A DNA stretch of 64,000 bases from an uncultured Phycisphaerales bacterium (GCA_903845195.1 CAIMWO010000033.1:2347-66346), one strand, 5' to 3'. Shown: positions 30,422-51,724, counted from the stretch's first letter. Made by a program: numbers and translations. The notes: a model not told the origin generated them from the sequence alone.

Positions 30422-33118
30422 CTAGTTTTTCGCAGGTTTTTTGCCTGCCTCTTTGCCGGCCAGCGGCCTGGGTTCATCGGGGAACCAGCAACTCTCGATG
30501 CCCTGGGTATCGACGGCCGTGACGAAGTAGAACTTTCCGGCGGCGCCGGACGGATCACGAAACGTCGTCTGAGTCAGCAGCTTGTAGCGCTCCGGAACAT
30601 AGGGCGAATTCAGAAGGGTCATGATGCGGCCCTCCTCATCAGCACGGTAAACGCGGTATCCGGCGATCTTCCCGCTGGCGGGTTGCCACGTAACGCTTAC
30701 GCCGCCTTCCGGGCTGGGCTTAACATGGATTCCCTGCGGCAGGGCCGGAGCGGTGGGTGGATCGTAATTGCGCCGAGCCAGCTTCAAATCGACCAGCGTG
30801 TGGAAAAATGTCGCCGCGTCCGCCCAGTTGATCCACTTGGCCTGGTTGAGCGTCCGCGTGTAGTAACAAGCCTCGGTGATGCCCACCGGCGATTCCTCGT
30901 TGGGGTTTTCCAGGATCGGCATATAAGGTGCGGCAATCCATCCTTCCCAGCGGTGATCGTGCGACTGAGTGCGAAAGTAATTGCCCCGCGTGTACGAAAG
31001 CGTCCGGCCCGAACTCCCGGGAAGATCGTGATGCTCCATGTCTCCAGTGACGTCGATGGCGTCAGTGAAACGCTGGTACACCGCGGGATGAATCGACAGA
31101 TCCTCGTTTTGCGTCAGTTCAATGGAGCGCAGCCAGTGATCGCAAACAGCCTGGTAGAGCAAGTCGCTCTGCGAGCCCTGCCCGGAATTGCCGGAGTACG
31201 AGCGCTGCCCGTGGCCGTAGATACCCGCCACACCGGCGCTCTTGGTCACATCGCGGTAGAACATGGTCATCCAGTCGTCGTGGGACTTCTTGCCGCCGTA
31301 GAGACCGAAGTAGATCGATCCGATCTGCATGTTGTAGGCATTGGCAAAGGCGATGAGATGGGGAAGGCCCGAGTCCGGATAAACGGCGCCGTTGGTCAGC
31401 ATGGAGGCGCGGCCGACGGCGTAGCAGATTTTGTCCAGCCGTTCGTTGGGGCCCCAGTACTCCGCCAGCGGCGCCATCGCGCCCGACCCATAGCCGATGT
31501 TGTAGGGCTGCACCGGGCCTGCCACCTTATCGCCACCGCTGGGCCGATTATCGAGCGGAGGCAGTTTGTTCACCTGATTCTGCGCCCAGCCGGGAAGCCA
31601 CGCGGCCACCGTATCTTTGTTGGGCTCCATCGTCGGCGAGGCCATCTTGCGGACCGCATCCCGCACGGCGTCGTCCTTGCCCGTGAGATAATCGAGCGCC
31701 GCGGTCTCATTCCATGATCGATGCCAGTCCGCTTTCTCGTAAAACTTCGCCCCCTCCACTTTCAGCAGTACCGCGAGATCATCGACCGTAATCCCAGGTT
31801 CGTCGACCGCCGCCGTCAGCGTGACCTGGTTTGATCGCACAACGTCCCAGAGTTTCTCCGCATCCGTCGACGGTACAAAGACGATGCGGTTCTGGAACCA
31901 GAACGAGCGGATCGTCTGGCTAAAGGAATCAAAATTGCGATGCAGGGTGGTGGGGCCCATGAATTGCAACGTCTGTGGCGAAGCTGGCTTTTCTTCCGTG
32001 GGAGTTTCGCTCTGGTAGGACACTCCCGGTTGGCCGGCCGAAATGTGCGGTATGTTGACGACACTGAACCCTGCCTTTTCCGCCTCGGCCGCGTCGACGT
32101 ATTGGTTCTGCACGTAGCGAAGTAGCTTCCGCAGGCCCGTCGGTATTTTTCGAATGACGGGCGTCTCGCCGTCTTTGCCGAATGTGGCCTTGCCGCTTAG
32201 CAGCATCGGTGCCGCAGCCGCCACGCACTCGGGGGACTCCTTCTCTTCCGGGAATGTCCGTTCCGTGGCGATGATCATGCTCCCGTGACGCGGGATCAGG
32301 TACGTGGATTCCGCAGCATCCGGCACGCCCTTCGGTCCGACCTTGACCCGCACCTTCGCGAAGATCGGCCCGCTGGCGTACTTGAACTCGCGAATCTCCA
32401 GGTTTTCCGGCGACTCATAGCTGACCGTCGTCGCTCGCAGCGTCGTGAAAGTTTCATCTCCCTTGGGCTGGGCTTCGGCATGCTGGCGCTCCAGCCGAAA
32501 GCTGGGCCCCATCCAGCCGTCGAGCAGATTCAACTTGCCGAACGGCGTTTCAAGCCCGCTGATCGCGCCCTTGCGCGGGCCCTCGGTCAGGAAGGCGACT
32601 TTGAGATCATCAGCGGAAAACTGAACCTGACCGCTGCTTCCCGTCGCGGGGATGGGACTCATCTTGCCGCCAGGATTCGTCCCTCGATAGACAAACAATT
32701 GCCTGCGCTGCCAGGGAGCCAGGTCGGTGAAAAAATAAATGTGCATGGCGGAAATGCCGCCAGCAACCGAGTGGCGGATGTCGTCGGCCTGATAGGGGAT
32801 CGGCTTGGTCCTGGCCGTGTCGGCGGCATCGAAAATGACCAAGCCATTGGAGTCCGTGCACTCCCCGGTATGAAAAAAAAGCGGAACGCGCACGAGATCG
32901 TTCTTGCGGGCAAGACCCACATGCTCGTTGACCGTCAACTGCCGAAGGGGACCTCCCGCCTTTGGCACACTTTCACGAATCACGGGCGTGAAAGCGAGAT
33001 TCGGTGCAGCGAACACCGAAGCGTCTTCGGCCGCATCGACGCGAAGGCCGATCAGGCCGGTAGCGACGAACGATAGGAAGAGGCTCGCCCCCACGAAATG
33101 GCGACGGGATATCCGCAT
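30422..33118 (-). CDS. Tat-signal secreted 898-aa protein with C-terminal fibronectin-III-like domain (possible polysaccharide-active enzyme, unassigned)
   Basis: MRISRRHFVGASLFLSFVATGLIGLRVDA twin-arginine signal. C-terminal GVSVTWQPASGKIAGYRVYRADEEGRIMTLL...FYFVTAVDTQGIES FN3-like. Confidence 0.5.
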   Translation of the reverse strand: MRISRRHFVGASLFLSFVATGLIGLRVDAAEDASVFAAPNLAFTPVIRESVPKAGGPLRQLTVNEHVGLARKNDLVRVPLFFHTGECTDSNGLVIFDAADTARTKPIPYQADDIRHSVAGGISAMHIYFFTDLAPWQRRQLFVYRGTNPGGKMSPIPATGSSGQVQFSADDLKVAFLTEGPRKGAISGLETPFGKLNLLDGWMGPSFRLERQHAEAQPKGDETFTTLRATTVSYESPENLEIREFKYASGPIFAKVRVKVGPKGVPDAAESTYLIPRHGSMIIATERTFPEEKESPECVAAAAPMLLSGKATFGKDGETPVIRKIPTGLRKLLRYVQNQYVDAAEAEKAGFSVVNIPHISAGQPGVSYQSETPTEEKPASPQTLQFMGPTTLHRNFDSFSQTIRSFWFQNRIVFVPSTDAEKLWDVVRSNQVTLTAAVDEPGITVDDLAVLLKVEGAKFYEKADWHRSWNETAALDYLTGKDDAVRDAVRKMASPTMEPNKDTVAAWLPGWAQNQVNKLPPLDNRPSGGDKVAGPVQPYNIGYGSGAMAPLAEYWGPNERLDKICYAVGRASMLTNGAVYPDSGLPHLIAFANAYNMQIGSIYFGLYGGKKSHDDWMTMFYRDVTKSAGVAGIYGHGQRSYSGNSGQGSQSDLLYQAVCDHWLRSIELTQNEDLSIHPAVYQRFTDAIDVTGDMEHHDLPGSSGRTLSYTRGNYFRTQSHDHRWEGWIAAPYMPILENPNEESPVGITEACYYTRTLNQAKWINWADAATFFHTLVDLKLARRNYDPPTAPALPQGIHVKPSPEGGVSVTWQPASGKIAGYRVYRADEEGRIMTLLNSPYVPERYKLLTQTTFRDPSGAAGKFYFVTAVDTQGIESCWFPDEPRPLAGKEAGKKPAKN

Positions 33119-33452: not shown

Positions 33453-34298
33453 ATGAAGGTGCGCAAGGCGGTAGTGACGGCGGCGGGAAAAAGTCAGCGG
33501 GCGTTGCCGTTGCAGCGATTCGTGGATCGCGATGGGACTGAAAAAACACTACTGCAGATCGTCACCGAAGAAGTGCTGGCGGCCGGCGTGGAGGAGATCG
33601 CGGTGATCACCTGCCCCGGCGACGCGGCGGTGTACCGGGAGGCGGCGGGGGGACATGCGGGGCGGATCAGTTTTATCGAACAGGAGAAACCTCGCGGCTA
33701 TGGAGACGCGATCTTTCGGGCCGCAGATTTTGTCGGCGGTGAGGCGTTTGTGCACCTGGTTTCCGATCATCTTTATTTGAGCGCTAGCGAGGTCCGGTGC
33801 GCGGCCCAGTTGGTGAAAGCGGCCGAGGCGAACAGTTGCGCAGTCTCGGCGGTGCAGGCGACACGCGAAAGCATGCTGCCCTACTACGGCACGGTCGGCG
33901 GACGGCGCGTCGTGCAGCAGCAGAAAATGTACGAAGTCGAAACCGTGATGGAAAAGCCGACACCGACCCAGGCCGAGCAAACGCTGATCGTGCCCGGCCT
34001 CAGAGCGGGGCATTACCTGTGCTTCTTTGGCATGCACGTGCTGACACCTGCCGTGATGGAGATTCTGCAGCGGCAACTGGCGGCACTGCCCGCCGGACAA
34101 ATGCTGACGCTTAGCGGCGCACTGGCCGAACTCCCGCAACGCGAGAAGTACCTGGCCCTCGAGATTGACGGTTCGCGGCACAATGTGGGCGTGAAATACG
34201 GCATCCTGATGGCACAGATGGCGCTGGCGATGGCTGGGCAGGACCGCGAATCGGTGCTGGCGGAAATGGTGGAAATGCTGGCGGCCCGAGGCAAATAG
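33453..34298 (+). CDS. sugar-1-phosphate nucleotidyltransferase (GalU / UTP-glucose-1-phosphate uridylyltransferase-like)
   Basis: [22 protein letters not shown]-terminal NTP-transferase motif, [17 protein letters not shown]. Directly upstream of the bifunctional gene. Confidence 0.6.
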
Positions 34299-34386: not shown

Positions 34387-37300
34387 ATGCACAGCAAACT
34401 GATAGATGTGATTGTTTCCGAAGAAGCGGGAGTGCGAAACCAGTCGCTGGATGCACTGGTGGCAGGGGCATCGCTGGAAGAACTGCTGCGACAGTGTGCA
34501 GCGCTGGATGACTTTCGGCGGACGTGTCCCAATCTGTATCAACGGGTGCGCGCACTCTTCTTCCTGTACGCGATTTACCGCTTCCATGTCCCCCTGTGTG
34601 TGCCCGCAACGGCCCATGGAGCGATTCCCTTTCACGGCTACGAGCAATTACTGGCGCGGCGGTTCGAAGAATCGATCGATACATTTCTGGCCACCCAGAC
34701 TAAGCAGGGCGCCAGTGATCAGCTCTCATCCGCACTGGCCGCGGCATACAAGGACCTGGGATTTCAAACGCTGGCGAATCAGGTGCGTCGAAGCGTCCGA
34801 TCGGTGCGGGGGAATCAGTGGATGTTCCGCGTCGGCCATCCGCTCGATCAACCGCTGCGAATCCGCCCCGAGTTGCTGGCGCGGCACCAGGCCGCAGGAG
34901 GGGATGCCGGAGCGTATCCAATTCTCTGCGAGAAAACGCCCGTGCGCATGGACCTTACGCACTCGGCATGGAGCGACATTTTTTTCCTGGGTATGGACTA
35001 TCCGGAGGGGGCGAAGGTCCTGAACGTGTCGATCGACTTGGCGGTCCACGGTCGCGACCCGCTGCCCCAGCCGCCGGTCGAGGCCTACCTGCGGGTGATC
35101 GATCAGCCGGTGCTGCGGTTGGTGTCGGTGGATCTGGGCGCGAGCGTCGAGATCAGCAGTCTGGCGGAAGTATTCGATTTTGCGCGGGATTACCTGGGCC
35201 TCTTGAAGGCGGCCGTGATTGCCGCCGGGATCGTGCCGCCGGGTCTTGAGGGGTCCGAGCAGCAACTCTCCGACGTGCTGGCGCGATTGGTCGGGCCGGG
35301 GCTGGGGTTGGAGATTGTCAGCAAAATCAACGACATTCCCAAGGGCTCACGCTTGGCGGTATCGACCAACCTGCTGGCGTCGCTGATCAGTGTCTGCATG
35401 CGCGCGACCGGACAAACCAAGCAGTTGACCGGCCCCCTGGAGGAACCGGAGCGCCGCGTGGTAGCCGCGCGGGCGATCCTCGGCGAGTGGCTCGGCGGCA
35501 GCGGCGGCGGGTGGCAGGATTCCGGCGGCGTTTGGCCGGGAATGAAACTCATCTGCGGCGCACGTGCCGAAAAGGGCGATGTGGAAGCCGGCATTTCGCG
35601 CGGCCGGTTGCTGCCCAATCATCGTATTCTGAATCGCGACGATGCCAGCGATGCCGCACGTGAAGCACTCCAGGATTCACTCGTGCTGGTGCACGGCGGA
35701 ATGGCGCAGAATGTCGGTCCGATCCTCGAAATGGTCTCCGAAAAATATCTACTCCGTAGCGAAAAGGAATGGGAAGCCCGTCAGGCGGCCCTCGGCGTGC
35801 TGGACCAGGTCCTCACCGCACTGAAGGCCGGCGATATCCGCGCGGTCGCCAAGGCCACCACCTACAATTTCTTCGGCCCGATCCAGGCCATCATTCCCTG
35901 GGCCAGCACGATGTACACGGAACTGCTCATCGAACGCATCAAGGCACGCCTCGGCGAGGATTTCTGGGGCTTCTGGATGCTCGGCGGTATGTCCGGCGGC
36001 GGCATGGGATTCATTGTCGCCCCGCACCGCAAAGCCGAGACGCAGAAACTGCTGCAGGAAACCATGCGCGACACAAAGAACGAACTGCAAGCTGCATTGC
36101 CCTTCGCCATGGACCCCGTCGTTTACGATTTTGCCATCAACGAACGCGGAACCTGGAGCGAGATTCTCGTCGGTGAGCAGGCCATGATGCCCGCCAGCTA
36201 TTACGGCCTGATGGTGCCCGGATGGATCCGGCAGGATGTGCGGAAATTGACGCCGCTGGTGCGCGGCGACTTGGAGCGGTTCGGTCAGACCTGCGCAAAA
36301 AACGCGGCCATGGGAGAGACCGTCGACGCTGTGTTCCAGCGGCTGATTCCCCATTCGGCACGCGAGAGTTCGCAGAAACAGAGCCTGGGCCAGGTGCTCG
36401 ATGATCTCGGCTTTGATCGGCAGCAGCATGAACAGGTCCGCGGATCGCTGCGGGCCGGCCGGCTCGGGCTGGCGCAAAATCGTCTGCCCGACGCGACGAC
36501 CATTGAAGACGTGCGCCCGGAAGATGTGTTTGATGCCCGCGGCGACGGCGCGGAAAAGTATCGCTCCCTCGGGCAAAAGGCGCTGCAGGATGGACAGGTG
36601 GCGGTCGTAAGTCTCGCAGCAGGCGTGGGAAGCCGCTGGACGCAGGGGGCCGGCGTCGTCAAGGCACTGCATCCGTTCTGCAAACTGGGAGGGCGGCATC
36701 GAAGTTTCCTCGAAGTGCATTTGGCAAAAAGCCGGCGGGTATCGCAGGAGACCAACTCGGCAATCCCCCACGTCGTCACGACGAGCTGGCTGACGCACGA
36801 CCCACTCGCCAATTTTCTGGCACGGAGCAACAACTACAAGTATCCGGGCGAGGTTGTGTTGTCGCCGGGACGCGCCGTGGGCCTGCGAATGGTCCCCATG
36901 GTGCGGGACCTGCGGTTTGCCTGGGAGGAAATGCCGCAGCAGCAGTTGGATGAGCAGAAGCAGAAGATGCGGGAATCAGGCCGATCCGCGTTGATCGGAT
37001 GGGCGCAAGCCGCCGGCGAGGGGAGCGATTACACCGACAATCTCCCCGCACAATGCCTGCACCCCGTCGGCCATTGGTTTGAGATTCCCAACATGCTGCG
37101 GAACGGCATCCTTGCGGGGCTGATCGAAAAACGCCCGCAACTCAAGTACCTGATGCTGCATAACATCGATACGCTCGGCGCCGATGTCGATGCCCGGCTG
37201 CTGGGGCTTCACATCGATCGTGGCACCTGCCTGTCCTTCGAAGTCATCGGCCGGAGGATCGAGGATCGCGGCGGCGGCTTGGCGCGGGTCGATGGACGCG

Positions 37301-37722
37301 TGCGTCTGCTCGAAGGCCTCGCAATGCCGCGGGAAGAGGACGAATTCGGACTGAGCTTCTATAACTCAATGACGACCTGGATCGACATCGATCAACTCCT
37401 CACAGTCTTCGGGCTGACCCGCGATGAGCTTAGCAATGTCGAAAAGGTGGCGGCAGCCGTGCGGACCATCGGCGCACGCATGCCGACCTACATCACCCTC
37501 AAAGATGTAAAGAAACGCTGGGGCCAGGGGCAGGAGGATGTCTTCCCCGTGGCGCAGTTTGAAAAGCTCTGGGGGGACATGACGGCGCTGCCGGAAGTGG
37601 GCTGCGGATTCTTCGTAGTGGACCGCCGGCGTGGGCAACAACTGAAAGACCAGGCGCAGTTGGACGGGTGGTACCGGGAGGGGAACGCCGCTTACCTGGA
37701 AACGCTCTGCGCGTGGAGCTGA
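34387..37722 (+). CDS. 1111-aa fusion: N-terminal ~180 aa unknown, a GHMP-kinase-like (fucokinase-type) sugar kinase domain with a degenerate glycine-rich loop, and a C-terminal UDPGP-family (UDP-sugar/UDP-GlcNAc pyrophosphorylase-type) nucleotidyltransferase
   Basis: GHMP motif 1-like PVRMDLTHSAWSDIFFLGMDYPEGAKVLNVSIDL. Motif 2 position DIPKGSRLAVSTNLLASLISV (compare Fkp NLPKGSGMGTSSILGAATLAV). GGSGGGWQDSGG (Fkp GTGGGWQDQVGG). UDPGP: VVSLAAGVGSRWTQGAGVVKALHPF, IPHVVTTSWLTHDPLANFL, LMLHNIDTLGADVD. Confidence 0.6.
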   Translation: MHSKLIDVIVSEEAGVRNQSLDALVAGASLEELLRQCAALDDFRRTCPNLYQRVRALFFLYAIYRFHVPLCVPATAHGAIPFHGYEQLLARRFEESIDTFLATQTKQGASDQLSSALAAAYKDLGFQTLANQVRRSVRSVRGNQWMFRVGHPLDQPLRIRPELLARHQAAGGDAGAYPILCEKTPVRMDLTHSAWSDIFFLGMDYPEGAKVLNVSIDLAVHGRDPLPQPPVEAYLRVIDQPVLRLVSVDLGASVEISSLAEVFDFARDYLGLLKAAVIAAGIVPPGLEGSEQQLSDVLARLVGPGLGLEIVSKINDIPKGSRLAVSTNLLASLISVCMRATGQTKQLTGPLEEPERRVVAARAILGEWLGGSGGGWQDSGGVWPGMKLICGARAEKGDVEAGISRGRLLPNHRILNRDDASDAAREALQDSLVLVHGGMAQNVGPILEMVSEKYLLRSEKEWEARQAALGVLDQVLTALKAGDIRAVAKATTYNFFGPIQAIIPWASTMYTELLIERIKARLGEDFWGFWMLGGMSGGGMGFIVAPHRKAETQKLLQETMRDTKNELQAALPFAMDPVVYDFAINERGTWSEILVGEQAMMPASYYGLMVPGWIRQDVRKLTPLVRGDLERFGQTCAKNAAMGETVDAVFQRLIPHSARESSQKQSLGQVLDDLGFDRQQHEQVRGSLRAGRLGLAQNRLPDATTIEDVRPEDVFDARGDGAEKYRSLGQKALQDGQVAVVSLAAGVGSRWTQGAGVVKALHPFCKLGGRHRSFLEVHLAKSRRVSQETNSAIPHVVTTSWLTHDPLANFLARSNNYKYPGEVVLSPGRAVGLRMVPMVRDLRFAWEEMPQQQLDEQKQKMRESGRSALIGWAQAAGEGSDYTDNLPAQCLHPVGHWFEIPNMLRNGILAGLIEKRPQLKYLMLHNIDTLGADVDARLLGLHIDRGTCLSFEVIGRRIEDRGGGLARVDGRVRLLEGLAMPREEDEFGLSFYNSMTTWIDIDQLLTVFGLTRDELSNVEKVAAAVRTIGARMPTYITLKDVKKRWGQGQEDVFPVAQFEKLWGDMTALPEVGCGFFVVDRRRGQQLKDQAQLDGWYREGNAAYLETLCAWS

Positions 37723-37769
37723 ACCAGAGTCTGCAACGCCATGGAACCACGACTGCACGATGTGGAATA

Positions 37770-37783
37770 ATTTTGCATGCAAA
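37770..37783. promoter_or_regulatory. perfect 14-bp AT-rich palindrome TTTTGCATGCAAAA
   Basis: Read directly, just upstream of the tandem structured repeat. Candidate dimeric regulator site. Confidence 0.3.
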
Positions 37784-37792
37784 AATAAAAAA

Positions 37793-37958
37793 GCCGTGTG
37801 GAGGAGGGTAAGTGTCCACACGGCTTGGCGGAGGAGGAAACGAGTACTTGAAACCGCGGCGTGTGCCTTGCGACGACACGCCGACGGGTTGTTGATAAAG
37901 GCCGCGAGTTCGAGGGTTAGTCCACTCGCGGCTTGGCGGAGGAGGAAACGAGTATTGG
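37793..37958. repeat. two tandem ~108-bp units, each a 9-bp-stem hairpin with a 14-nt loop followed by the conserved motif TTGGCGGAGGAGGAAACGAGTA(C/T)TG; a third 8-bp hairpin lies between them
   Basis: Unit 1: gccgtgtgg-aggagggtaagtgt-ccacacggc + ttggcggaggaggaaacgagtacttg (37793-37850). Unit 2: gccgcgagt-tcgagggttagtcc-actcgcggc + ttggcggaggaggaaacgagtattgg (37901-37958). Spacer hairpin cggcgtgt..acacgccg. Confidence 0.7.
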
Positions 37959-38388
37959 TCAGCGGCTTGGCTGCTGAGTGATCGTCCCACTTGACCATTC
38001 AGTAACTGTTGCCGCGGCATTTCCACACAATTCAGGTGCTCAGACCGCCGGTCTGGTCCTGAATTATTCATTTGTCATGCTGGAGTAAAAAGCAACAGGC
38101 GTGCCAGATCTGATGTGAAGGTTTTAGTTTTTTCGCCAGCGTGATAGTGAGCCAAAAAATCGCTCTAAAAGCGTGTTTTATGGCGAAAATGCGGGGTAAA
38201 TGCTGGTCAAAAATCACAGGGGAGGTGAGAATTGGTTTTTCGTATGCTGATGGCGGCTGCGTAAATGATCATCAAACAGGCACGGCGGGGGTTCCGGGTG
38301 CCCAACGATCACGCAGAGGCGGTCGCGATGGCGGGTTTTGCGGGTGATGGCGATGTTTAAGCTCTGGTTTAGAAATGATTTACAAGCG

Positions 38389-44565: not shown

Positions 44566-45972
44566 TCAGATGTTGCGCAGTTTATTCGATCCGTTAAACG
44601 CCGCGACCTTGTACGTCTCGGCCAGCGTTGGGTAGTTGAAAACATTATTGATGAAGAAGTCGACAGTGCCGTTGAAGGCCATGACCGCCTGGCCGATGTG
44701 CACCAGTTCGGTCGCCTGCGTGCCGATGATGTGCACGCCAAGGATCTGCCGGCTCTCCTGGTGGATCAGCAGTTTGAGCATGCCGACGGTATCGCCGAGG
44801 ATCTGGCCACGGGCGACTTCCTTGTAGTGGGCGATGCCGGCCTCATAGGGAATGCCGGCGTCCGTGAGTTGTTTTTCCGTTTTTCCAACCATCGAGATTT
44901 CAGGAATCGCGTAGATGCCGTAGGGGAATAGCTCAGGAATGGAAGTGGTTTCAACGCCGAAGGCATGGCAGACGGCCAGGCGTCCCTGCTCCATTGAGGT
45001 GGACGCGAGTGCGGGAAAACCAATGACGTCACCGGCGGCGTAGATATGGGCCACATCCGTCTGATAGCTCTTGTTGACCTTCAGACGCTCGCGATCGTCG
45101 GGGACCAGCCCGACGTTTTCCAGTTGCAGAGACTTGGTGGTGCCCTGTCTGCCCACAGCATAGAGCAGGCACTGCGCGGTCAGGCATTTACCGGATTCGA
45201 GATGCGCCTGAACGAGCTTTGAGCCGTGGTTGCTGGGAGCGTCGATTTCTTCGATCTTCGAGACTTTCTCGCCGAAGCGCAGCGTGATGCCGACCTGGCG
45301 CATTTGATACTGCAACGCCTCGACGATTTCGCGGTCGAGGAATTCGAAGAGTTCAGTCTTGCCTTCGACGAGCGTCACGCGCACACCGAGCGTGCCCAGC
45401 ATGCACGCATATTCGACGCCGATGACGCCGCCCCCGACGACGATGATCGATTTGGGCAGGTGCGCCAGTCTGAGCAAGCCGTCGGACGTGAAAATGTTGT
45501 GATCGTTGAACGGCACCGACGATGGCGTCGCCGGACGCGTACCCGTGCAGATGATGAATTTGTCGGCCGTGATCATCTCGGTATGTTCGGGCATTTCCAG
45601 CTGCAGGAGATTCGGCCCTTCGAAATGGGCATTGCCCCACAGCAGATCGATGCCGTTGCGGTCGAAATGTTCGCGGATGACACCGCGCTCGTTGTGGATG
45701 ACATGCTGCGACACGTAGATGAGGTCTTCGATCGTGATATCGCGTTTGGGTCGGAAGTTGTCCCCGTACAGGGCGCGCTTGTTGGAGCCCGTCAGGTACA
45801 GCACGGCTTCGCGGAGCGACTTGGAGGGAATGGTCCCGGTATTGATCCCGGCGCCGCCCAGAACCGGATCTTTTTCAATGATGCAGACTTTCTTCTCGAG
45901 CTTGGCAGCCTGGATGGCGGCTTTCTGCCCGGCGGGCCCGGACCCGATCACAGCAATATCGTAATGTTTCAT
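44566..45972 (-). CDS. sthA: soluble pyridine nucleotide transhydrogenase / FAD-dependent pyridine nucleotide-disulfide oxidoreductase
   Basis: MKHYDIAVIGSGPAGQKAAIQAAKL, GGAGINTGTIPSK, second Rossmann IIVVGGGVIGVEYACMLGTLG, dimerisation domain at the C-terminus. No redox-active CxxxxC, consistent with SthA rather than Lpd. Confidence 0.75.
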   Translation of the reverse strand: MKHYDIAVIGSGPAGQKAAIQAAKLEKKVCIIEKDPVLGGAGINTGTIPSKSLREAVLYLTGSNKRALYGDNFRPKRDITIEDLIYVSQHVIHNERGVIREHFDRNGIDLLWGNAHFEGPNLLQLEMPEHTEMITADKFIICTGTRPATPSSVPFNDHNIFTSDGLLRLAHLPKSIIVVGGGVIGVEYACMLGTLGVRVTLVEGKTELFEFLDREIVEALQYQMRQVGITLRFGEKVSKIEEIDAPSNHGSKLVQAHLESGKCLTAQCLLYAVGRQGTTKSLQLENVGLVPDDRERLKVNKSYQTDVAHIYAAGDVIGFPALASTSMEQGRLAVCHAFGVETTSIPELFPYGIYAIPEISMVGKTEKQLTDAGIPYEAGIAHYKEVARGQILGDTVGMLKLLIHQESRQILGVHIIGTQATELVHIGQAVMAFNGTVDFFINNVFNYPTLAETYKVAAFNGSNKLRNI

Positions 45973-46146
45973 TGTCCCTTCCACTTTCACCGTTCCTTCC
46001 CGCGAGATACTTATCGGCCAAGCCGCCGCGGGAGTCAATGGAGAGTTTGCTTCAGAACGCTTTGTTTTTCGTTATTTCGTCACGGAAAATTCGGAGCGGT
46101 TACTCCGGTGTTGTGCCGGGTGGGGGTTCATCGGTAGACTGCACGC

Positions 46147-48418: not shown

Positions 48419-51400
48419 CTATCCGGCTCTTCCGGCGCGATGCGGCTCCACGCGTTCTTTGCTCACCCGCAGGCCGGTAGTGTTGATGTGGGCGGCAAAG
48501 GTAAGGCCGAGAGAACCGGGTCGCATCGAGAGATTGCGAAGTTCCGTGCGCAGCCGGTGGGCTTGGTCCGGCGTAGCGCAGAGAAAATACGCAAAGCCGC
48601 CCCCGCCCGCGCCGGCCAGTCCCCCGGCCAGATAGTGCGGCCGAAGCTGCAGAAACAGCGAATCGATCGCCGGCGTCGTCGAACCCGGGAAAAGGTCCTT
48701 TTTGATCCGCCAGTAGCGATTGATTTCCGCCGAACACGAAAGCCAGTCCGCATTCTTCAGCGCTGCCGTGGCCGCGTGGGCACAATGCACCAGCTCGTTG
48801 AACAGCACCAGTGTGCCGGGCTCTCGGGAAAGATAGCGCCCCATGACTTCACGCAAAATATTGCGCGCCAGCCGCTGTTGGCCGGTGAAGTAGACGACGA
48901 GGCGATCTTCGAAAGCTTGTCGATGGGCCGGCGACAGCGGAATGCGTGTCGCATGGAGCCGCTGCGGGATGCCGGGCTTGGCCGAGGTGATCTTGGCGCC
49001 GCCAAGGATTCCACCCACCTGATCCTGCCAGCCGCCGCCGGTGCCCAGGTATTGCTCCAGCAGCAGGGTTTGCTCGAACAGCGATGCCGGGGCGTTATCC
49101 TGTCCGGTCGCCGCGCGCAGCACAGCCAGCGTCGCGGCACCCAGAATCGATGAAGTTCCCATCCCCGAGCCCTTGGGAAGATTGGACGCCGTCATGAGTT
49201 CGAAGCCGCGCCTGCGCTTACCCGACCGGTGCAGACGCGACAGCCACTTATGCATGGAAGTTTCGCGCGCCGTCGGCGCCAACCCTGTCAGACGCAGCGC
49301 CACCATGTGCAGCGCAAACGGATTGCCCGCGAAAGAGTCGTCAGCGGAAATCGCCAGCTGTTCGGGATCGGTGATGATGCGCGTCTTTCCCAGGTCCCGC
49401 GAAACCAGCCGCACGATCGGCTCGTTCAGCGGTCGAAAGGTGGATTGAATCGGCTCAGTATCATTGAGGTTGATCGCGACATTGACGACCGTCCCGCCGT
49501 TTTCGAGGCAGTAGGGGGGTGTATCCGTCCATCCCCCGGCCAGATCGATGCGGACCGGTGCCGACGCGATCAGGCATTCGGAGTTCTCAATACTCAGCGC
49601 GGCGTCCTCTTTCGTCGCAACGATGCGCGGATCCATCGCTTGGCGGATGCAAGAAAAAGCCTGGTTCTGCAGAGCACCCGGCGCCGCGGGCAAGGCCACG
49701 GCGTCGTGAGGAAAGTGCGGACGGTCGATGATCTCCGCCAGCGACCAGAATAATCGCGCCCGAATCAGCGGCGGCGTCGCTGGATTTCGCGCAGCGCGGT
49801 GGACCTGCTCGGTTAGTTGCTGATACCCCGCCGGGCCGAAGTGATTGATCGTGCTTTGCACCGAAGCGGCAGAGCCATCCGCAACCGCGGTCAGCCACTC
49901 CGTCGCCTGAAGAATTCCCGAAAGCATGTCCCGGTGGTGAGCCATCGCCGCTGCGTCGCCGCGCTCCAGAATGTCGGCCATGGAATAACGGCGATCTGCC
50001 CGCCAGGCCTTGCGAACCGCACTTGTGAGCGCGTGCGGCGACGTCATCCACTCGATGTCGCTCATATGCGATTCCGCCCCGGCATGCGAAGCGTGAATCC
50101 CACGGTAAAGCTTCGCCGTCCAGAGCGAGCGCTTGGCCGACCGGTCATCGGGCCACAGGTCCGATTCGCTCAGTCCCGCCAGGCTCAGCCAGTGACGCAG
50201 ATCGATGTTGCAGAGCGTGCGATCCGTCTTGAAATCGTCGTGCACGCCGCTGATCACGGTGACCAGGTAGGACTTGTTTCCATCCTCGATCGGCACGCCG
50301 AAGACCAGCGTATCCGGCGGAACATGCAGGCCCGCGTGCGCGCCGCGGCCCGAAAGCTTGAGATTGCTCAGGATTGAACCGTGCCCGATGGTTAACCGAC
50401 CGGGCAGACTGCAATTTTCAATGACCACATGCTCGGCGATCTTTACGTCGGCTGCGGAAACGACCGATTGAAATACCCGCGCCGTCTTGGGCAGTGCGGC
50501 AGCACACGCAAAGCGGACGTTCTTGTGAAAGAGCGTGTTGATCGGCGCGGGATCGAGTCCCGTCATCGCATCGCGGAATTGCCGCGTCGTGCCCAGATGA
50601 GCGAAGTGCGCGTTTTCAAACTCATACACCCGCAGCGGCGAATGCGCCAGCGCGTGGCGCAAATCAGATTGCAGCTTGCGTAACAGCGGATCGCCGGAAA
50701 GCAGCGGAAGATTCTGCGTCAGTGCTGCCGGAACAATGTCGGAGTAAAGGTCGATCTGCCGGCGCGTCTTGAGATGCCACGCCGGCGAATACTTACGCGA
50801 GAGCGTGTGCAGCGCCGTCGTAGCGGCCGCATCGAAAAACAGCAGGCCGGAATCGATGAGCACCCGATCGCGCTCGTCCGTGACGCCTGCCGATCGCATC
50901 TGCTCGACCGTCGCCTTCTGCATCGTTGCGACGACCAGCGGAAACGCCGACTTCGCCGCCTTCGGGTTTCTCGCCGTTGGCTTTTCAATCTTGAACACGC
51001 CGTGGTGTTCGCCGAACTCCGCGGGTGTACGCAGCGAAAGTGCCGTGATGCCCGCGTTTTCTGGCAGCGACGGCATCGCCGCGCCGTCAAAAAGCAGAAA
51101 CACATCGCCCGCCGCGATCAGCATTCCCGCCCCTAGCCGCGGTGGCATCGCCGCCAGCATGAGGTAGAGGTGATCGAACAGGGTCATCAATTGGCCGTCG
51201 GGACGGATCAGCGGCAGCGGCGCAAAAATCTTGCCCAGTGCCGAGTACTGCGGCAGACGCTGCGATGCGCCGCCCGAATGAATCAGCAAAATGCGCAGCG
51301 CATCGAACGGCTTCGCCTCTCCGATCGACTTGTGATGCGCCGCGATGGCGCGCAACACGCCAAACGTGGCCCCGCCCGAACCGGCACGAAACCCCGGCGG

Positions 51401-51724
51401 ATCGGGCACCACCAGGTTTTGCTGCGATGATGGGAAAAACGCTCCCAGCGGCCCGCCCCCCGAAGCCCGCGCCGCCAATTCATGCCGATACCCCGCCGCC
51501 TGATGTTCATTCGCCGCCGTCAGCACCAGGTAATCCCACGTCAACCCCGGTTGATGCCCGATCAACGCACGTTTGTAAGCCTCCGCCGCGCGGGAGAGCA
51601 GCAGTTCGAGATTCTCACCCGCCTTCGGTTTCGATTTGCGATGTTCACTTGAGGACATGGAACTACCCTGAAAGAGCCCGGGAAACGACGTGAGTTTGTT
51701 ATCGGCCAGATATCTTCGCATCAT
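48419..51724 (-). CDS. fkp: bifunctional L-fucokinase / GDP-L-fucose pyrophosphorylase (Fkp-type): N-terminal nucleotidyltransferase, C-terminal GHMP kinase
   Basis: N-terminus WDYLVLTAANEHQAAGY...LLIHSGGASQRLPQYSALGKIFAPLP. GHMP motifs RIDLAGGWTDTPPYCLENGGTVVNVAINL, NLPKGSGMGTSSILGAATLAV, GTGGGWQDQVGGILGG. Alternative start at 51658. Confidence 0.75.
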   Translation of the reverse strand: MMRRYLADNKLTSFPGLFQGSSMSSSEHRKSKPKAGENLELLLSRAAEAYKRALIGHQPGLTWDYLVLTAANEHQAAGYRHELAARASGGGPLGAFFPSSQQNLVVPDPPGFRAGSGGATFGVLRAIAAHHKSIGEAKPFDALRILLIHSGGASQRLPQYSALGKIFAPLPLIRPDGQLMTLFDHLYLMLAAMPPRLGAGMLIAAGDVFLLFDGAAMPSLPENAGITALSLRTPAEFGEHHGVFKIEKPTARNPKAAKSAFPLVVATMQKATVEQMRSAGVTDERDRVLIDSGLLFFDAAATTALHTLSRKYSPAWHLKTRRQIDLYSDIVPAALTQNLPLLSGDPLLRKLQSDLRHALAHSPLRVYEFENAHFAHLGTTRQFRDAMTGLDPAPINTLFHKNVRFACAAALPKTARVFQSVVSAADVKIAEHVVIENCSLPGRLTIGHGSILSNLKLSGRGAHAGLHVPPDTLVFGVPIEDGNKSYLVTVISGVHDDFKTDRTLCNIDLRHWLSLAGLSESDLWPDDRSAKRSLWTAKLYRGIHASHAGAESHMSDIEWMTSPHALTSAVRKAWRADRRYSMADILERGDAAAMAHHRDMLSGILQATEWLTAVADGSAASVQSTINHFGPAGYQQLTEQVHRAARNPATPPLIRARLFWSLAEIIDRPHFPHDAVALPAAPGALQNQAFSCIRQAMDPRIVATKEDAALSIENSECLIASAPVRIDLAGGWTDTPPYCLENGGTVVNVAINLNDTEPIQSTFRPLNEPIVRLVSRDLGKTRIITDPEQLAISADDSFAGNPFALHMVALRLTGLAPTARETSMHKWLSRLHRSGKRRRGFELMTASNLPKGSGMGTSSILGAATLAVLRAATGQDNAPASLFEQTLLLEQYLGTGGGWQDQVGGILGGAKITSAKPGIPQRLHATRIPLSPAHRQAFEDRLVVYFTGQQRLARNILREVMGRYLSREPGTLVLFNELVHCAHAATAALKNADWLSCSAEINRYWRIKKDLFPGSTTPAIDSLFLQLRPHYLAGGLAGAGGGGFAYFLCATPDQAHRLRTELRNLSMRPGSLGLTFAAHINTTGLRVSKERVEPHRAGRAG

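Follow-up and report, generated by a model that had tools for sequence, protein, structure and literature searches.

A widespread two-gene unit combining a GalU-like protein with a fucokinase-like kinase and UGPase-type nucleotidyltransferase fusion

In a single open reading frame from an uncultured Phycisphaerales bacterium, a fucokinase-like sugar kinase is followed by a domain of the eukaryote-type enzymes that form UDP-sugars. Together with a GalU-like gene it makes up a two-gene unit that is very widespread, extremely conserved and hitherto without characterisation. By analogy with known fusions, we favour, with a probability of roughly 55%, the reading that the fusion is a catalytically active bifunctional UDP-sugar-making enzyme, which would form a two-gene nucleotide-sugar module with the GalU-like protein. 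The fusion most likely acts as an active sugar (or phosphosugar) 1-kinase feeding a UDP-sugar pyrophosphorylase.

Architecture and distribution of the fusion

The fusion was located in the window, the whole 64,000-nucleotide stretch of DNA analysed here, as the initial annotation had described it, and every sequence string quoted there was recovered at its position. The protein is identical to a 1111-aa fusion recorded in public metagenome contigs, where the gene call of the GalU-like partner is also present.

34387..37722, + strand: fusion ORF, 1111 aa, stop codon included
34387..34881, + strand: N-terminal helical region, residues 1-165, family-specific, defined by conservation
34882..36177, + strand: GHMP-superfamily sugar kinase domain of the fucokinase/heptokinase clade, residues about 166-597
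36178..36546, + strand: linker or pre-catalytic helical region, residues 598-720, defined by conservation
36547..37719, + strand: UDPGP-family (UGPase-type) nucleotidyltransferase domain, residues about 721-1111
33453..34298, + strand: GalU-like nucleotidyltransferase, 281 aa, leading the conserved two-gene operon

Both enzyme folds are backed by sequence profiles and structure comparison. Pfam, NCBIfam, Foldseek and the C-terminal profile agree on the proposed order of kinase then pyrophosphorylase, the reverse of that in Fkp, and profile and fold comparison place the pyrophosphorylase in the UDPGP family and not with the Fkp type. The N-terminal region, predicted to be all-helical with low pLDDT over residues 77-154, has no relatives in Pfam or PDB and holds the near-invariant block VRSVRGNQWMFR.GHP.DQPLRIRPELL. 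The linker, for which a PDB search found no relatives, carries a conserved GFDRxQHEQ.R..L..GR.GLAQNRL block.

The assignment of the kinase half to the fucokinase type, made from the sequence by eye, was confirmed by three alignments. The NCBIfam PRK13412 Fkp profile matches residues 165-558 with its kinase part (profile positions 595-950; E 5e-20), the solved B. fragilis Fkp matches residues 178-413 (E 7e-10), and the window's own Fkp-like ORF (48419-51724, - strand) shares 26% identity with the fusion kinase along about 390 aa (E 3e-16). The paralogue alignment yields the residue pairings given in the initial annotation, PKGSRLAVSTN/PKGSGMGTSS and GGSGGGWQDSGG/GTGGGWQDQVGG, and sets GGMSGGGMGF of the fusion's motif III against the GLAGAGGGGF region. 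The kinase half has the two-lobed GHMP fold and contains both GHMP motif I and the glycine-rich motif III; Foldseek target TM scores were 0.73 for the Fkp kinase part, 0.75 for the heptokinase WcbL and about 0.5 for UGPases. Confidence in the AlphaFold model is low exactly at the active-site loops. Profile searches, proposed at the outset as a check, supported the domain assignments in part: UDPGP was matched and the kinase was placed by the NCBIfam Fkp profile, but the Pfam GHMP models matched neither the full protein nor the isolated kinase domain. As a full-length Fkp (NF009948 / PRK13412) the protein scored 70.8 bits against a 721-bit cutoff, the kinase part alone matching and the N-terminal GFPP domain not. 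PADLOC defence models had no match to the fusion protein or its partner.

The family occurs in at least 594 species genomes, comprises more than 8000 protein clusters at 90% identity and spans Verrucomicrobiota, Planctomycetota, Chloroflexota and other phyla. The fusion protein is about 66% identical between phyla, which suggests an important cellular role. The initial description of the fusion as unrecognised did not hold, since the family is very common and routinely named: databases call it UTP--glucose-1-phosphate uridylyltransferase (by similarity), and one JGI record names both halves as 'UDP-N-acetylglucosamine pyrophosphorylase/galactokinase/mevalonate kinase-like predicted kinase'. 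A literature search found no description of the fusion family, and the profile databases no family-specific model.

A remodelled phosphate loop in the kinase

The active-site motifs of the kinase were mapped as follows.

34942..34977, + strand: motif I VRMDLTHSAWSD, aligning with Fkp motif I
35335..35370, + strand: motif II phosphate loop IPKGSRLAVSTN; Arg322 occupies the Fkp Gly715 position
35497..35529, + strand: GSGGGWQDSGG, in which Q377 and D378 correspond to Fkp Gln761 and Asp762
35968..36012, + strand: motif III glycine-rich loop GFWMLGGMSGGGMGF, without Arg; Gly-type relatives have DSTGxRGGAG

The GHMP motif II consensus is PxGSGLGSSA, and the glycine at the position of Arg322 is nearly universal. 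The canonical motif with its glycines is not found in the fusion, whose loop reads PKGSRLAVST, with Arg, Ala and Val where Fkp has Gly715, Gly717 and Thr718. This loop is fixed: G320, S321, R322, A324, V325, S326 and T327 are each 100% conserved among 346 unique full-length proteins. The catalytic and ligand residues of Fkp, including Asp762 as the proposed general base, have been described (PMC11982464), and their equivalents in the fusion (R592 to R187, W599 to W195, D601 to D197, D644 to D249, S719 to S326, E751 to E367, Q761 to Q377, D762 to D378) are all kept in at least 99% of the 346 sequences. The transition-state Arg R187 is conserved in 100% and the catalytic base D378 in 99.4%; R187, W195 and D197 of motif I, the counterparts of Fkp Arg592, Trp599 and Asp601, are kept in at least 99.7%. 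The equivalents of the Mg-site Ser and Glu, the latter (E367) just upstream of the GSGGGWQDSGG segment, those of the sugar-contact residues and that of the adenine-contact Asp (D249) each reach at least 99%, and the modelled adenine-pocket equivalents L250, L272 and L330 are invariant in family alignments. Across the wider family the kinase domain is the best-conserved part of the protein, and most columns that show no variation even among relatives at 30% identity fall within it.

Two clades, represented by 323 Arg-type and 7 Gly-type proteins, differ in the loop arginine and, in step with it, in motifs I and III. In the rarer Gly-type sister clade, the seven relatives have Gly at the Arg322 position and an Arg in motif III instead. 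The fixed loop and this co-variation therefore mark an Arg near the phosphate site as a conserved functional element. Because the loop is invariant, the catalytic equivalents are kept and the Arg co-varies between clades, the odd ATP loop is, as far as the alignments can tell, a remodelled site under purifying selection and not a decayed one. The loop had initially been called degenerate, which these data contradict, and the kinase possibly inactive, which overstates the case.

The initial annotation had also raised the idea of a silent kinase domain, a sugar or nucleotide sensor, or a module for substrate delivery, through which the UDPGP domain is regulated, so that the protein would be in function a regulated UDP-sugar pyrophosphorylase. 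Such a module could account for the Arg at a near-universal Gly together with Ala and Val for Gly and Thr, for the Pfam GHMP_kinases_N model matching the Gly-type protein P0163 and not the Arg-type proteins, and for databases annotating the protein as a UGPase only. It also has a precedent in yeast Gal3p, a ligand-binding, non-catalytic GHMP protein whose sole obvious defect likewise lies in the phosphate loop; a small change in motif II alone reportedly abolishes catalysis there while ligand binding is kept. Gal3p, however, carries a deletion; it arose recently as a paralogue of an active kinase and has its role in transcription, whereas the Gly-to-Arg change of the fusion is ancient, shows no variation and has its compensation in motif III. 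Mere binding would require neither the base Asp and the transition-state Arg nor the Ser and Glu of the metal site, yet all four are kept; the invariant Arg swaps place with a motif III Arg between clades; and the kinase domain is more conserved than any other part of the protein. We therefore regard a silent domain as rather unlikely and retain the active kinase as our working interpretation.

The sister clade also provides the biosynthetic context known for the family, from one operon and three giant fusions. In the overlapping operon of one Gly-type member, a HAD protein (beta-PGM family) and a GmhA-like SIS isomerase are followed by the fusion, a CelA/PgaC-like GT2 and a GH9; this is an exopolysaccharide/polysaccharide cluster that needs a nucleotide-sugar supply. 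In three giant Gly-type proteins the fusion architecture is joined to ROK (glucokinase-like) and inositol-monophosphatase (IMPase/CysQ-like) domains.

These neighbours recall the GDP-heptose pathway GmhA / HddA (WcbL) / GmhB / HddC, whose HddA/WcbL kinases are equally close structurally. The HldE kinase-adenylyltransferase fusion, moreover, shows that two fused activities may catalyse steps that do not follow one another. By this analogy the fusion might hold a C1 kinase acting on a phosphorylated sugar (hexose-6-P or heptose-7-P), followed by an unlinked phosphatase and then by the UDPGP domain; Arg322, or the motif III Arg of Gly-type proteins, would bind the extra phosphate, and in the hexose case the result would be a phosphoglucomutase-independent route to UDP-hexose. 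Consistent with such a scheme are the isomerase and HAD phosphatase-type protein adjoining the fusion in the Gly-type operon, the ROK and IMPase/CysQ-like domains of the giant proteins, an Inositol_P gene 1.8 kb downstream of a Nitrospirota Arg-type gene (43% identity), and the constant presence of the extra Arg near the phosphate site. Arg-type genes, in contrast, have the GalU-like gene as their sole recurrent neighbour, with no phosphatase, isomerase or ROK gene within 6 kb in 81 main-clade loci or in the 64-kb window. The transferase belongs to another family, and the NCBIfam HddA model misses the fusion protein but matches the window's Fkp paralogue. The Trp of motif I, which stacks on neutral fucose in Fkp (PMC11982464), has been regained in the Arg-type clade and is absent from Gly-type proteins, a difference that suggests a substrate change between the clades. 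We consider non-consecutive steps unlikely, and a kinase feeding the fused transferase directly remains the preferred reading.

The nucleotidyltransferase domain and the GalU-like partner

The following features describe the nucleotidyltransferase domain and the partner.

36613..36669, + strand: nucleotide-binding loop LAAGVGSRWTQGAGVVKAL (G746, G748, R750, K759), aligning with UGPase LNGGLGTSMG...PK
37060..37083, + strand: HPVGHWFE, variant of UGPase PPGHGD with Trp-Phe for Gly-Asp; H896 kept in 99.7%
37159..37182, + strand: HNIDTLGA (N926, D928), equivalent to UGPase SNxDNLGA
37240..37284, + strand: EVIGRRIEDRGGGLA (E952, D960, R961 for Lys, G962), equivalent to UGPase E..dKt.aDvKGGt
33477..33515, + strand: variant nucleotide-binding signature of the partner, 13 residues (canonical GalU: AAGLGTRFLPATK), from the YngB alignment and 73 partner sequences
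33993..34043, + strand: 17-residue segment of the partner, a conserved 11-residue insertion relative to GalU/YngB followed by GMH for GRY

The C-terminal UDPGP signatures noted initially are supported by the Pfam UDPGP model PF01704 (42.4 bits against a gathering score of 22; 46.4 bits for the isolated domain), whose match spans profile positions 164-283 of 413, and by a C-terminal domain profile that matches eukaryotic UGPases (E 6e-30), the best sequence relatives. Motifs were mapped by profile alignment to the A. fumigatus UGPase and by pairwise alignment. G746, G748, R750, K759, H896, N926, D928, E952, D960, R961, G962, N993 and W998 are kept in 94-100% of sequences; nearly all of these signature residues reach at least 97%, including the nucleotide-binding loop (97-100% of 346 sequences), and R961 reaches 94.5%. 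For the final RFxPVK Lys motif of UGPases, the tail VDRRRGQQLKD aligned with VPRRRFLPVKT no better than shuffles did.

With the eukaryote-type UDP-glucose, UDP-GlcNAc and UDP-sugar pyrophosphorylases the domain shares the fold, the nucleotide-binding loop and the PxGH, NxDxLGA, D.[KR]GG and FN..N.W motifs. It differs in GHWF for GHGD, RGG for KGG and GSRW for GTSM, in its place behind a kinase and in a conserved insertion at about residues 840-890. Judged by its length alone, the protein seems to lack the beta-helix oligomerisation domain found at the C-terminus of UGPases. UGPases are the closest relatives, but motifs near the sugar and the phosphate are altered, and the specificity for glucose-1-phosphate and UTP that the database name implies is assigned by similarity.

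The GalU-like gene had been proposed as an operon partner, and the proposal was sustained: of 82 related loci, 74 have it directly upstream on the same strand, which makes 74 of the 77 informative ones, as five of the eight exceptions have no upstream DNA. The spacing in these loci is mostly -3 to +60 bp. The partner matches Pfam NTP_transferase (E 2e-11), shares the fold of GalU, GalF and YngB and keeps most YngB ligand residues, among them the Mg-chelating D105 (YngB Asp133) and the diphosphate Lys K168 in EKP (YngB Lys192). It is not GalU proper: TIGR01099 galU scores 94.6 bits, far under the 326.8 equivalog cutoff, the 73 partner sequences have G[KR]xQR where GalU has GxGTR, and the glucose-contact Asp134 of YngB is His106. 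S[GP]A for TDA adds to these differences and to the insertion and GMH segment listed above. The partner is probably catalytically active too, as a second nucleotidyltransferase whose sugar pocket has changed; its substrate may be a related sugar-1-phosphate, or it may connect the product with the UDP-glucose/glucose-1-phosphate pool. A role as a regulatory subunit would be the alternative. A simple two-step salvage leaves the need for two nucleotidyltransferases unexplained.

One kinase accompanied by two nucleotidyltransferases, family-fixed motif deviations in all three nucleotide-handling modules and the extreme constraint between phyla could also point to chemistry outside the textbook. 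The phosphoryl donor might not be ATP (for instance PPi from the fused transferase), a nucleotide-sugar supplied by the GalU-like partner might be phosphorylated in an IspD/IspE-like order, or the substrate might not be a sugar. The conserved equivalents of the adenine pocket and of the Fkp sugar contacts speak against such chemistry, which we hold to be very improbable.

Proposed function and relation to known systems

Under the reading we prefer, that of a bifunctional UDP-sugar-making enzyme, the mechanism can be outlined by analogy with Fkp. The GHMP domain would bind a sugar, possibly with an anionic group, and ATP-Mg. Asp378 would deprotonate the anomeric hydroxyl, Arg187 and probably also the loop Arg322 would stabilise the transferring phosphate, and Ser326, Thr327 and Glu367 would hold the metal. 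The fused UGPase-type domain would then convert the sugar-1-phosphate and UTP to UDP-sugar and pyrophosphate, using the G746-x-G748-S-R750 loop, K759, N926/D928 and D960-R961-G962.

Fkp likewise unites a GHMP anomeric sugar kinase and a sugar-1-P nucleotidyltransferase in one polypeptide, and shares the catalytic Arg, Asp and Glu, the sugar-contact Trp, Asp and Gln and the GGGWQD motif. Unlike Fkp, the fusion places the kinase first, has a UDPGP-family transferase instead of the GFPP/beta-helix domain, carries Arg, Ala and Val for Gly, Gly and Thr in motif II, and has an extra 165-aa N-terminal region and an obligate-looking GalU-like operon partner. Zebrafish GKUP also fuses a GHMP sugar-1-kinase, a glucuronokinase, to a UDP-sugar-forming nucleotidyltransferase for salvage, but there a short bacterial-type NTP_transferase is N-terminal and a kinase of another clade C-terminal; its putative UDP-GlcA pyrophosphorylase activity could not be demonstrated. 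Fkp and GKUP are precedents for kinase and pyrophosphorylase fusions. The Arg322 in place of a near-universal Gly and the altered GHGD and KGG motifs of UGPases are departures that sit less easily with a simple active enzyme.

A bolder interpretation, which we think quite improbable, is that the two genes constitute an unrecognised near-housekeeping UDP-sugar route in Verrucomicrobiota, Planctomycetota, Chloroflexota and allies. An essential Arg moved into the phosphate loop would adapt the kinase to an anionic substrate (such as hexose-6-phosphate, which would pass through a 1,6-bisphosphate without need of a mutase) or to a phosphoryl donor other than ATP (such as PPi that the fused transferase releases and the kinase reuses), with the GalU-like protein as an obligatory second catalytic or regulatory subunit.

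In thousands of genomes of major environmental phyla the fusion is labelled as nothing more than a UDP-glucose pyrophosphorylase. This name passes over a 600-residue kinase half, and for metabolic reconstructions of Verrucomicrobiota, Planctomycetota and Chloroflexota that degrade polysaccharides it is probably incorrect, or incomplete at best. A natural single-chain enzyme leading from sugar to UDP-sugar, if that is what the fusion is, would be useful in chemoenzymatic glycan synthesis, as Fkp is for GDP-fucose. Phosphate binding in the GHMP superfamily would also have to be viewed more broadly, given an invariant Arg in place of the phosphate loop's most conserved glycine and its compensation in motif III.

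Domain architecture, distribution and annotation of the fusion

The initial annotation described a fucokinase-like GHMP kinase and a UDPGP pyrophosphorylase fused in one ORF, and this was borne out in full by profiles, alignments and fold matches.

34387-37722, + strand: fusion ORF, 1111 residues
48419-51724, - strand: Fkp-like bifunctional fucokinase/GDP-fucose pyrophosphorylase, full length (PRK13412 E 6e-140; 468 bits, short of the equivalog cutoff of 721)

The fusion qualifies as a member of the Pfam UDPGP family (PF01704, residues 893-1008, 42.4 bits against a gathering score of 22), and its first 700 residues gave no Pfam match even when the protein was searched in pieces. Residues 165-558 match PRK13412, the NCBIfam model for bifunctional fucokinase/GDP-fucose pyrophosphorylase, with E 5e-20. 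This match is confined to the kinase part of the profile (positions 595-950) and reaches 70.8 bits against a cutoff of 721; the fusion falls outside the Fkp equivalog. Residues 178-413 also match the solved B. fragilis Fkp (E 7e-10), and the window's Fkp-like ORF aligns to the kinase region with 26% identity over ~390 residues (E 3e-16), an alignment that recovers the motif pairs initially quoted for the fusion and Fkp. A profile built from ten diverse C-terminal domains found eukaryotic UGPases (E 6e-30), UAP enzymes (about 1e-10) and a USP (about 1e-6). By-eye mapping of the last UGPase motif onto the fusion was tested and was not significant.

An AlphaFold2 model built from 34 homologues was of moderate confidence (mean pLDDT 66.7), with low values at the active-site loops. 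Foldseek searches with this model gave target TM scores of 0.73 for the Fkp kinase part and, on a par with it, 0.75 for the heptokinase WcbL, together with about 0.5 for plant, fungal and human UGPases; despite the moderate model quality, these predicted fold matches are unambiguous. Two regions, residues 1 to about 165 and the linker at about 598-720, show strong conservation, but neither has a relative in Pfam or in the solved structures.

Kinase-pyrophosphorylase fusions are already known (Fkp, FKGP, GKUP and HldE). The closest system is Fkp/FKGP, whose kinase is homologous and whose two-activity logic is the same, but the fusion differs from it in its reversed domain order, UDPGP-family transferase, altered motif II, extra N-terminal region and partner gene. 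Since the Fkp-like ORF lies in the same window, the classical fusion and the reversed UDPGP-type one coexist in this genome.

Full-length conservation across hundreds of genomes rules out a pseudogene or chance ORF, and several public metagenome contigs carry an identical protein with unchanged neighbours. A word-indexed search yielded at least 8000 scored clusters, all significant, the best 120 being 67-79% identical to the fusion over its full length, and when one genome per species was scanned, at least 594 carried the family. The best 80 loci belong to Verrucomicrobiota (42), Chloroflexota (20), Planctomycetota (11) and Armatimonadota (2), with one each from Lentisphaerota, Acidobacteriota, Myxococcota and Bacteroidota and one unclassified record. 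Further relatives occur in Nitrospirota, Sumerlaeota, Omnitrophota and a eukaryote, the oxymonad Blattamonas nauphoetae. Accession numbers of the two Omnitrophota records lie close together, and both may derive from a single MAG. The oxymonad protein (P0151, KAK2962578.1, 1292 aa) has the loop PKGSRLAVSS, which places it with the main, Arg-type clade, and shows 41% identity by phmmer and 33% by BLAST; its gene is probably of bacterial origin by lateral transfer.

Mean identity is 66-68% between phyla and 67-71% within them, and the nearest neighbour comes from the same phylum in 69 of 79 sequences. A few lateral transfers are clear, such as that of a Haliangiales protein 85% identical to a verrucomicrobial one. 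Approximately two-thirds of the 1,100 positions are effectively frozen.

Source databases name these proteins 'UTP--glucose-1-phosphate uridylyltransferase', 'ugp' or 'hypothetical protein', and a single JGI record is titled 'UDP-N-acetylglucosamine pyrophosphorylase/galactokinase/mevalonate kinase-like predicted kinase'. Given this distribution and these names, the architecture is not unrecognised, as had been supposed, but common and already noticed by automated annotation. NCBIfam holds no model for the family. Full-text literature searches returned work on Fkp, FKGP, GKUP and plant USP only, with no description of this architecture, and UDP-type fusions are absent from the 2025 FKP phylogeny paper.

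Kinase active site and the Arg-type and Gly-type clades

Residue roles were taken from the 2025 Fkp structure paper (PMC11982464) and positions were transferred by HMMER alignment to B. fragilis Fkp.

Fusion equivalents of functional Fkp residues (roles from PMC11982464)
Arg592, leaving-group stabiliser: R187
Trp599, stacking sugar contact: W195
Asp601 and Gln761, sugar contacts: D197 and Q377
Asp762, proposed general base: D378
Glu751, required for activity (E751A inactive): E367
Ser719 and Ser720, metal site: S326 and T327
Asp644, Met645, Ile669 and Leu722, modelled adenine pocket: D249, L250, L272 and L330

Across the Fkp 712-720 loop only three positions are changed, Gly715 to R322, Gly717 to A324 and Thr718 to V325. 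By motif II, as by Pfam, the fusion is not a canonical GHMP kinase. A rarer, deeply branching sister group of seven proteins (30-37% identity, one archaeal) has Gly at the R322 position, and among 331 family members the pattern of motifs I to III is fully systematic between the two clades; the remaining member, P0128, has Cys there.

Motifs of the two clades among 331 family members
Arg-type, 323 members: motif I H[SC][AG]W, Trp present; motif II GSRLAVS[TS]; motif III GGMSGGG (dominant form)
Gly-type, 7 members: motif I without Trp; motif II GSGLA[VI]ST; motif III DSTG[ACG]R[GA]GAG, Arg present

Both motif II and motif III border the phosphate site in GHMP kinases. Because of this, and because the clade pattern is systematic, the active-site Arg appears to have been relocated within the site rather than a glycine randomly lost, a pattern that argues against decay, short of proof of catalysis. 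The clades may also differ in kinase substrate, since the Arg-type proteins have the Fkp-like Trp, whereas the Gly-type proteins are without it.

The ATP loop had at first been read as degenerate, and the kinase domain as a possibly inactive module for substrate binding or regulation. A silent sensor domain of this kind has a precedent in yeast Gal3p, a galactokinase-like protein that a small change in motif II alone reportedly makes non-catalytic (Platt et al. 2000). The conservation of the loop does not resemble decay, however. In 346 unique full-length Arg-type proteins, the checked residues of PKGSRLAVST (G320, S321, R322, A324, V325, S326 and T327) are each 100% fixed, the checked equivalents of catalytic, sugar-contact and adenine-contact (D249) residues are each at least 99% conserved, and all checked UDPGP signature residues reach at least 94%. 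Together with the systematic relocation of the Arg, this makes a silent sensor unlikely.

The GalU-like partner gene and its surroundings

33453-34298, + strand: GalU-like partner gene, directly upstream of the fusion

The proposal that this gene is an operon mate held up: of 82 related loci, 74 have a GalU-like gene directly upstream in the same orientation, or 74 of the 77 informative ones, five of the eight exceptions having no upstream DNA. The two genes are usually separated by -3 to +60 bp (88 bp in the window). The pairing has exceptions, as a verrucomicrobial subclade (L050, L057, L080, P0335) and the Nitrospirota branch have no adjacent partner.

L087:10029-10835, Nitrospirota, relative P0273: deep Arg-type branch, 43% identity, no adjacent GalU-like gene

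The partner scores 94.6 bits against the NCBIfam galU equivalog, under the 326.8 cutoff, and by this curated cutoff is not GalU. Mapped on B. subtilis YngB (PMC7961091), it retains Ala13, Gly14, Gln105 and Gly110 (uridine contacts), Asp133 (Mg-chelating), Gly172, Glu191 and Val204 (sugar contacts) and Lys192 (diphosphate). Lys28 is replaced by Arg, Glu29 by Asp and the glucose-contact Asp134 by His. The signature is G[KR]xQR instead of GxGTR, and an 11-residue insertion is conserved. The partner has the appearance of an active nucleotidyltransferase whose sugar pocket has changed; a GalF-like regulator is conceivable.

When all ORFs within 6 kb were clustered at 81 loci, no recurrent neighbour family other than the GalU-like gene was found. 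An apparent 12-locus family was an artefact of antisense ORFs over that gene, and adjacency to dcw/glmS was seen on one 2-Mb contig only, with no recurrence at other loci. Neither upstream of nor inside the operon was there an Rfam match for a riboswitch or leader RNA (E up to 1), and a promoter and terminator scan gave no signal beyond shuffle expectation. PADLOC returned no match, and a defence-system reading was dropped. Over the ~600 bp downstream of the fusion (37723-38337), no + strand reading frame reaches 80 aa, Rfam gives no match, and no + strand terminator is convincing. Immediately past the fusion stop codon, an AT-rich palindrome (TTTTGCATGCAAAA) precedes an A-run.

30422-33118, - strand: flanking ORF, 898 aa
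38338-41160, + strand: flanking ORF, 940 aa
41963-43063, + strand: MprF C-terminal-like protein (LPG_synthase_C), flippase part absent
44566-46038, - strand: Si-specific NAD(P)+ transhydrogenase (E 3e-189)

The two flanking ORFs have no significant family match, with weak fn3 and CBM9-like matches only, and their adjacency to the operon is not conserved in other genomes. The last two genes are ordinary and have no relation to the fusion.

Functional clues from relatives and the proposed activity

The bacterial Gly-type gene P0323 belongs to an operon (L085:6073-23324) whose genes all run in one direction and in several cases overlap.

Genes of the P0323 operon, in order
1: NodU-like carbamoyltransferase
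2: beta-phosphoglucomutase-family HAD hydrolase (E 1e-39)
3: protein with a GmhA-like SIS isomerase domain (E 1e-17)
4: Gly-type kinase/UDPGP fusion
5: CelA/PgaC/NodC-like GT2
6: SGNH-like protein
7: GH9, second GT2, unassigned ORF, and second GH9 at the locus end

It is an exopolysaccharide-type cluster that includes its own nucleotide-sugar supply and follows the isomerase, kinase, phosphatase and transferase logic of the GDP-heptose pathway. This operon is uncharacterised and could reveal the ancestral function of the family. Three giant Gly-type metagenomic proteins, P0143 (2318 aa), P0155 (2939 aa) and P0271 (3096 aa), are joined to ROK glucokinase-like domains, and large stretches of each have no family match; P0143 alone also has an inositol-monophosphatase (IMPase)/CysQ-like domain. 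This domain is echoed in Nitrospirota, where an Inositol_P-family phosphatase gene lies 1.8 kb downstream of P0273 on the same strand. Taken together, these contexts support real kinase-plus-transferase chemistry in the family.

The same contexts raise the possibility of a phosphosugar substrate for the kinase, in a heptose-like scheme with an unlinked phosphatase: the GmhA-like SIS and HAD hydrolase genes, the ROK and IMPase/CysQ-like fusions and the Inositol_P neighbour would all fit it. The WcbL paper supplied no residues of the distal phosphate site that could be mapped. No phosphatase, isomerase or ROK gene, however, occurs near the main Arg-type loci or anywhere in the window, and we consider this scheme rather unlikely for the fusion.

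Relatives also show that the kinase and UDPGP halves are modular. P0261 has the reverse order (UDPGP 118-481, kinase 556-1223), and in P0175 and P0214 a GalU-like segment precedes the family region on its N-terminal side; the latter two may be true three-part fusions or gene calls merged across a 4-nt gene overlap.

We favour, with a probability of roughly 0.55, an active bifunctional enzyme combining a sugar 1-kinase with UDP-sugar formation, with which the observed folds, residue conservation, operon linkage and sister-clade context are consistent. The GHMP domain would transfer phosphate from ATP-Mg to a sugar's anomeric hydroxyl, Asp378 acting as base, Arg187 and probably also Arg322 acting on the transferring phosphate, and Ser326, Thr327 and Glu367 at the metal site. 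In a consecutive step, the UGPase-type domain would convert the sugar-1-phosphate and UTP to a UDP-sugar, and the GalU-like partner would carry out a second nucleotidyl transfer or regulate the first. Non-textbook chemistry, such as another phosphoryl donor or the phosphorylation of a nucleotide-sugar, seems quite improbable.

The fusion belongs to a widespread family under strong constraint, marked by a relocated active-site Arg and accompanied by a dedicated second nucleotidyltransferase; the family is uncharacterised and under-annotated. It represents a solid lead for enzymology and annotation, with biocatalytic potential.
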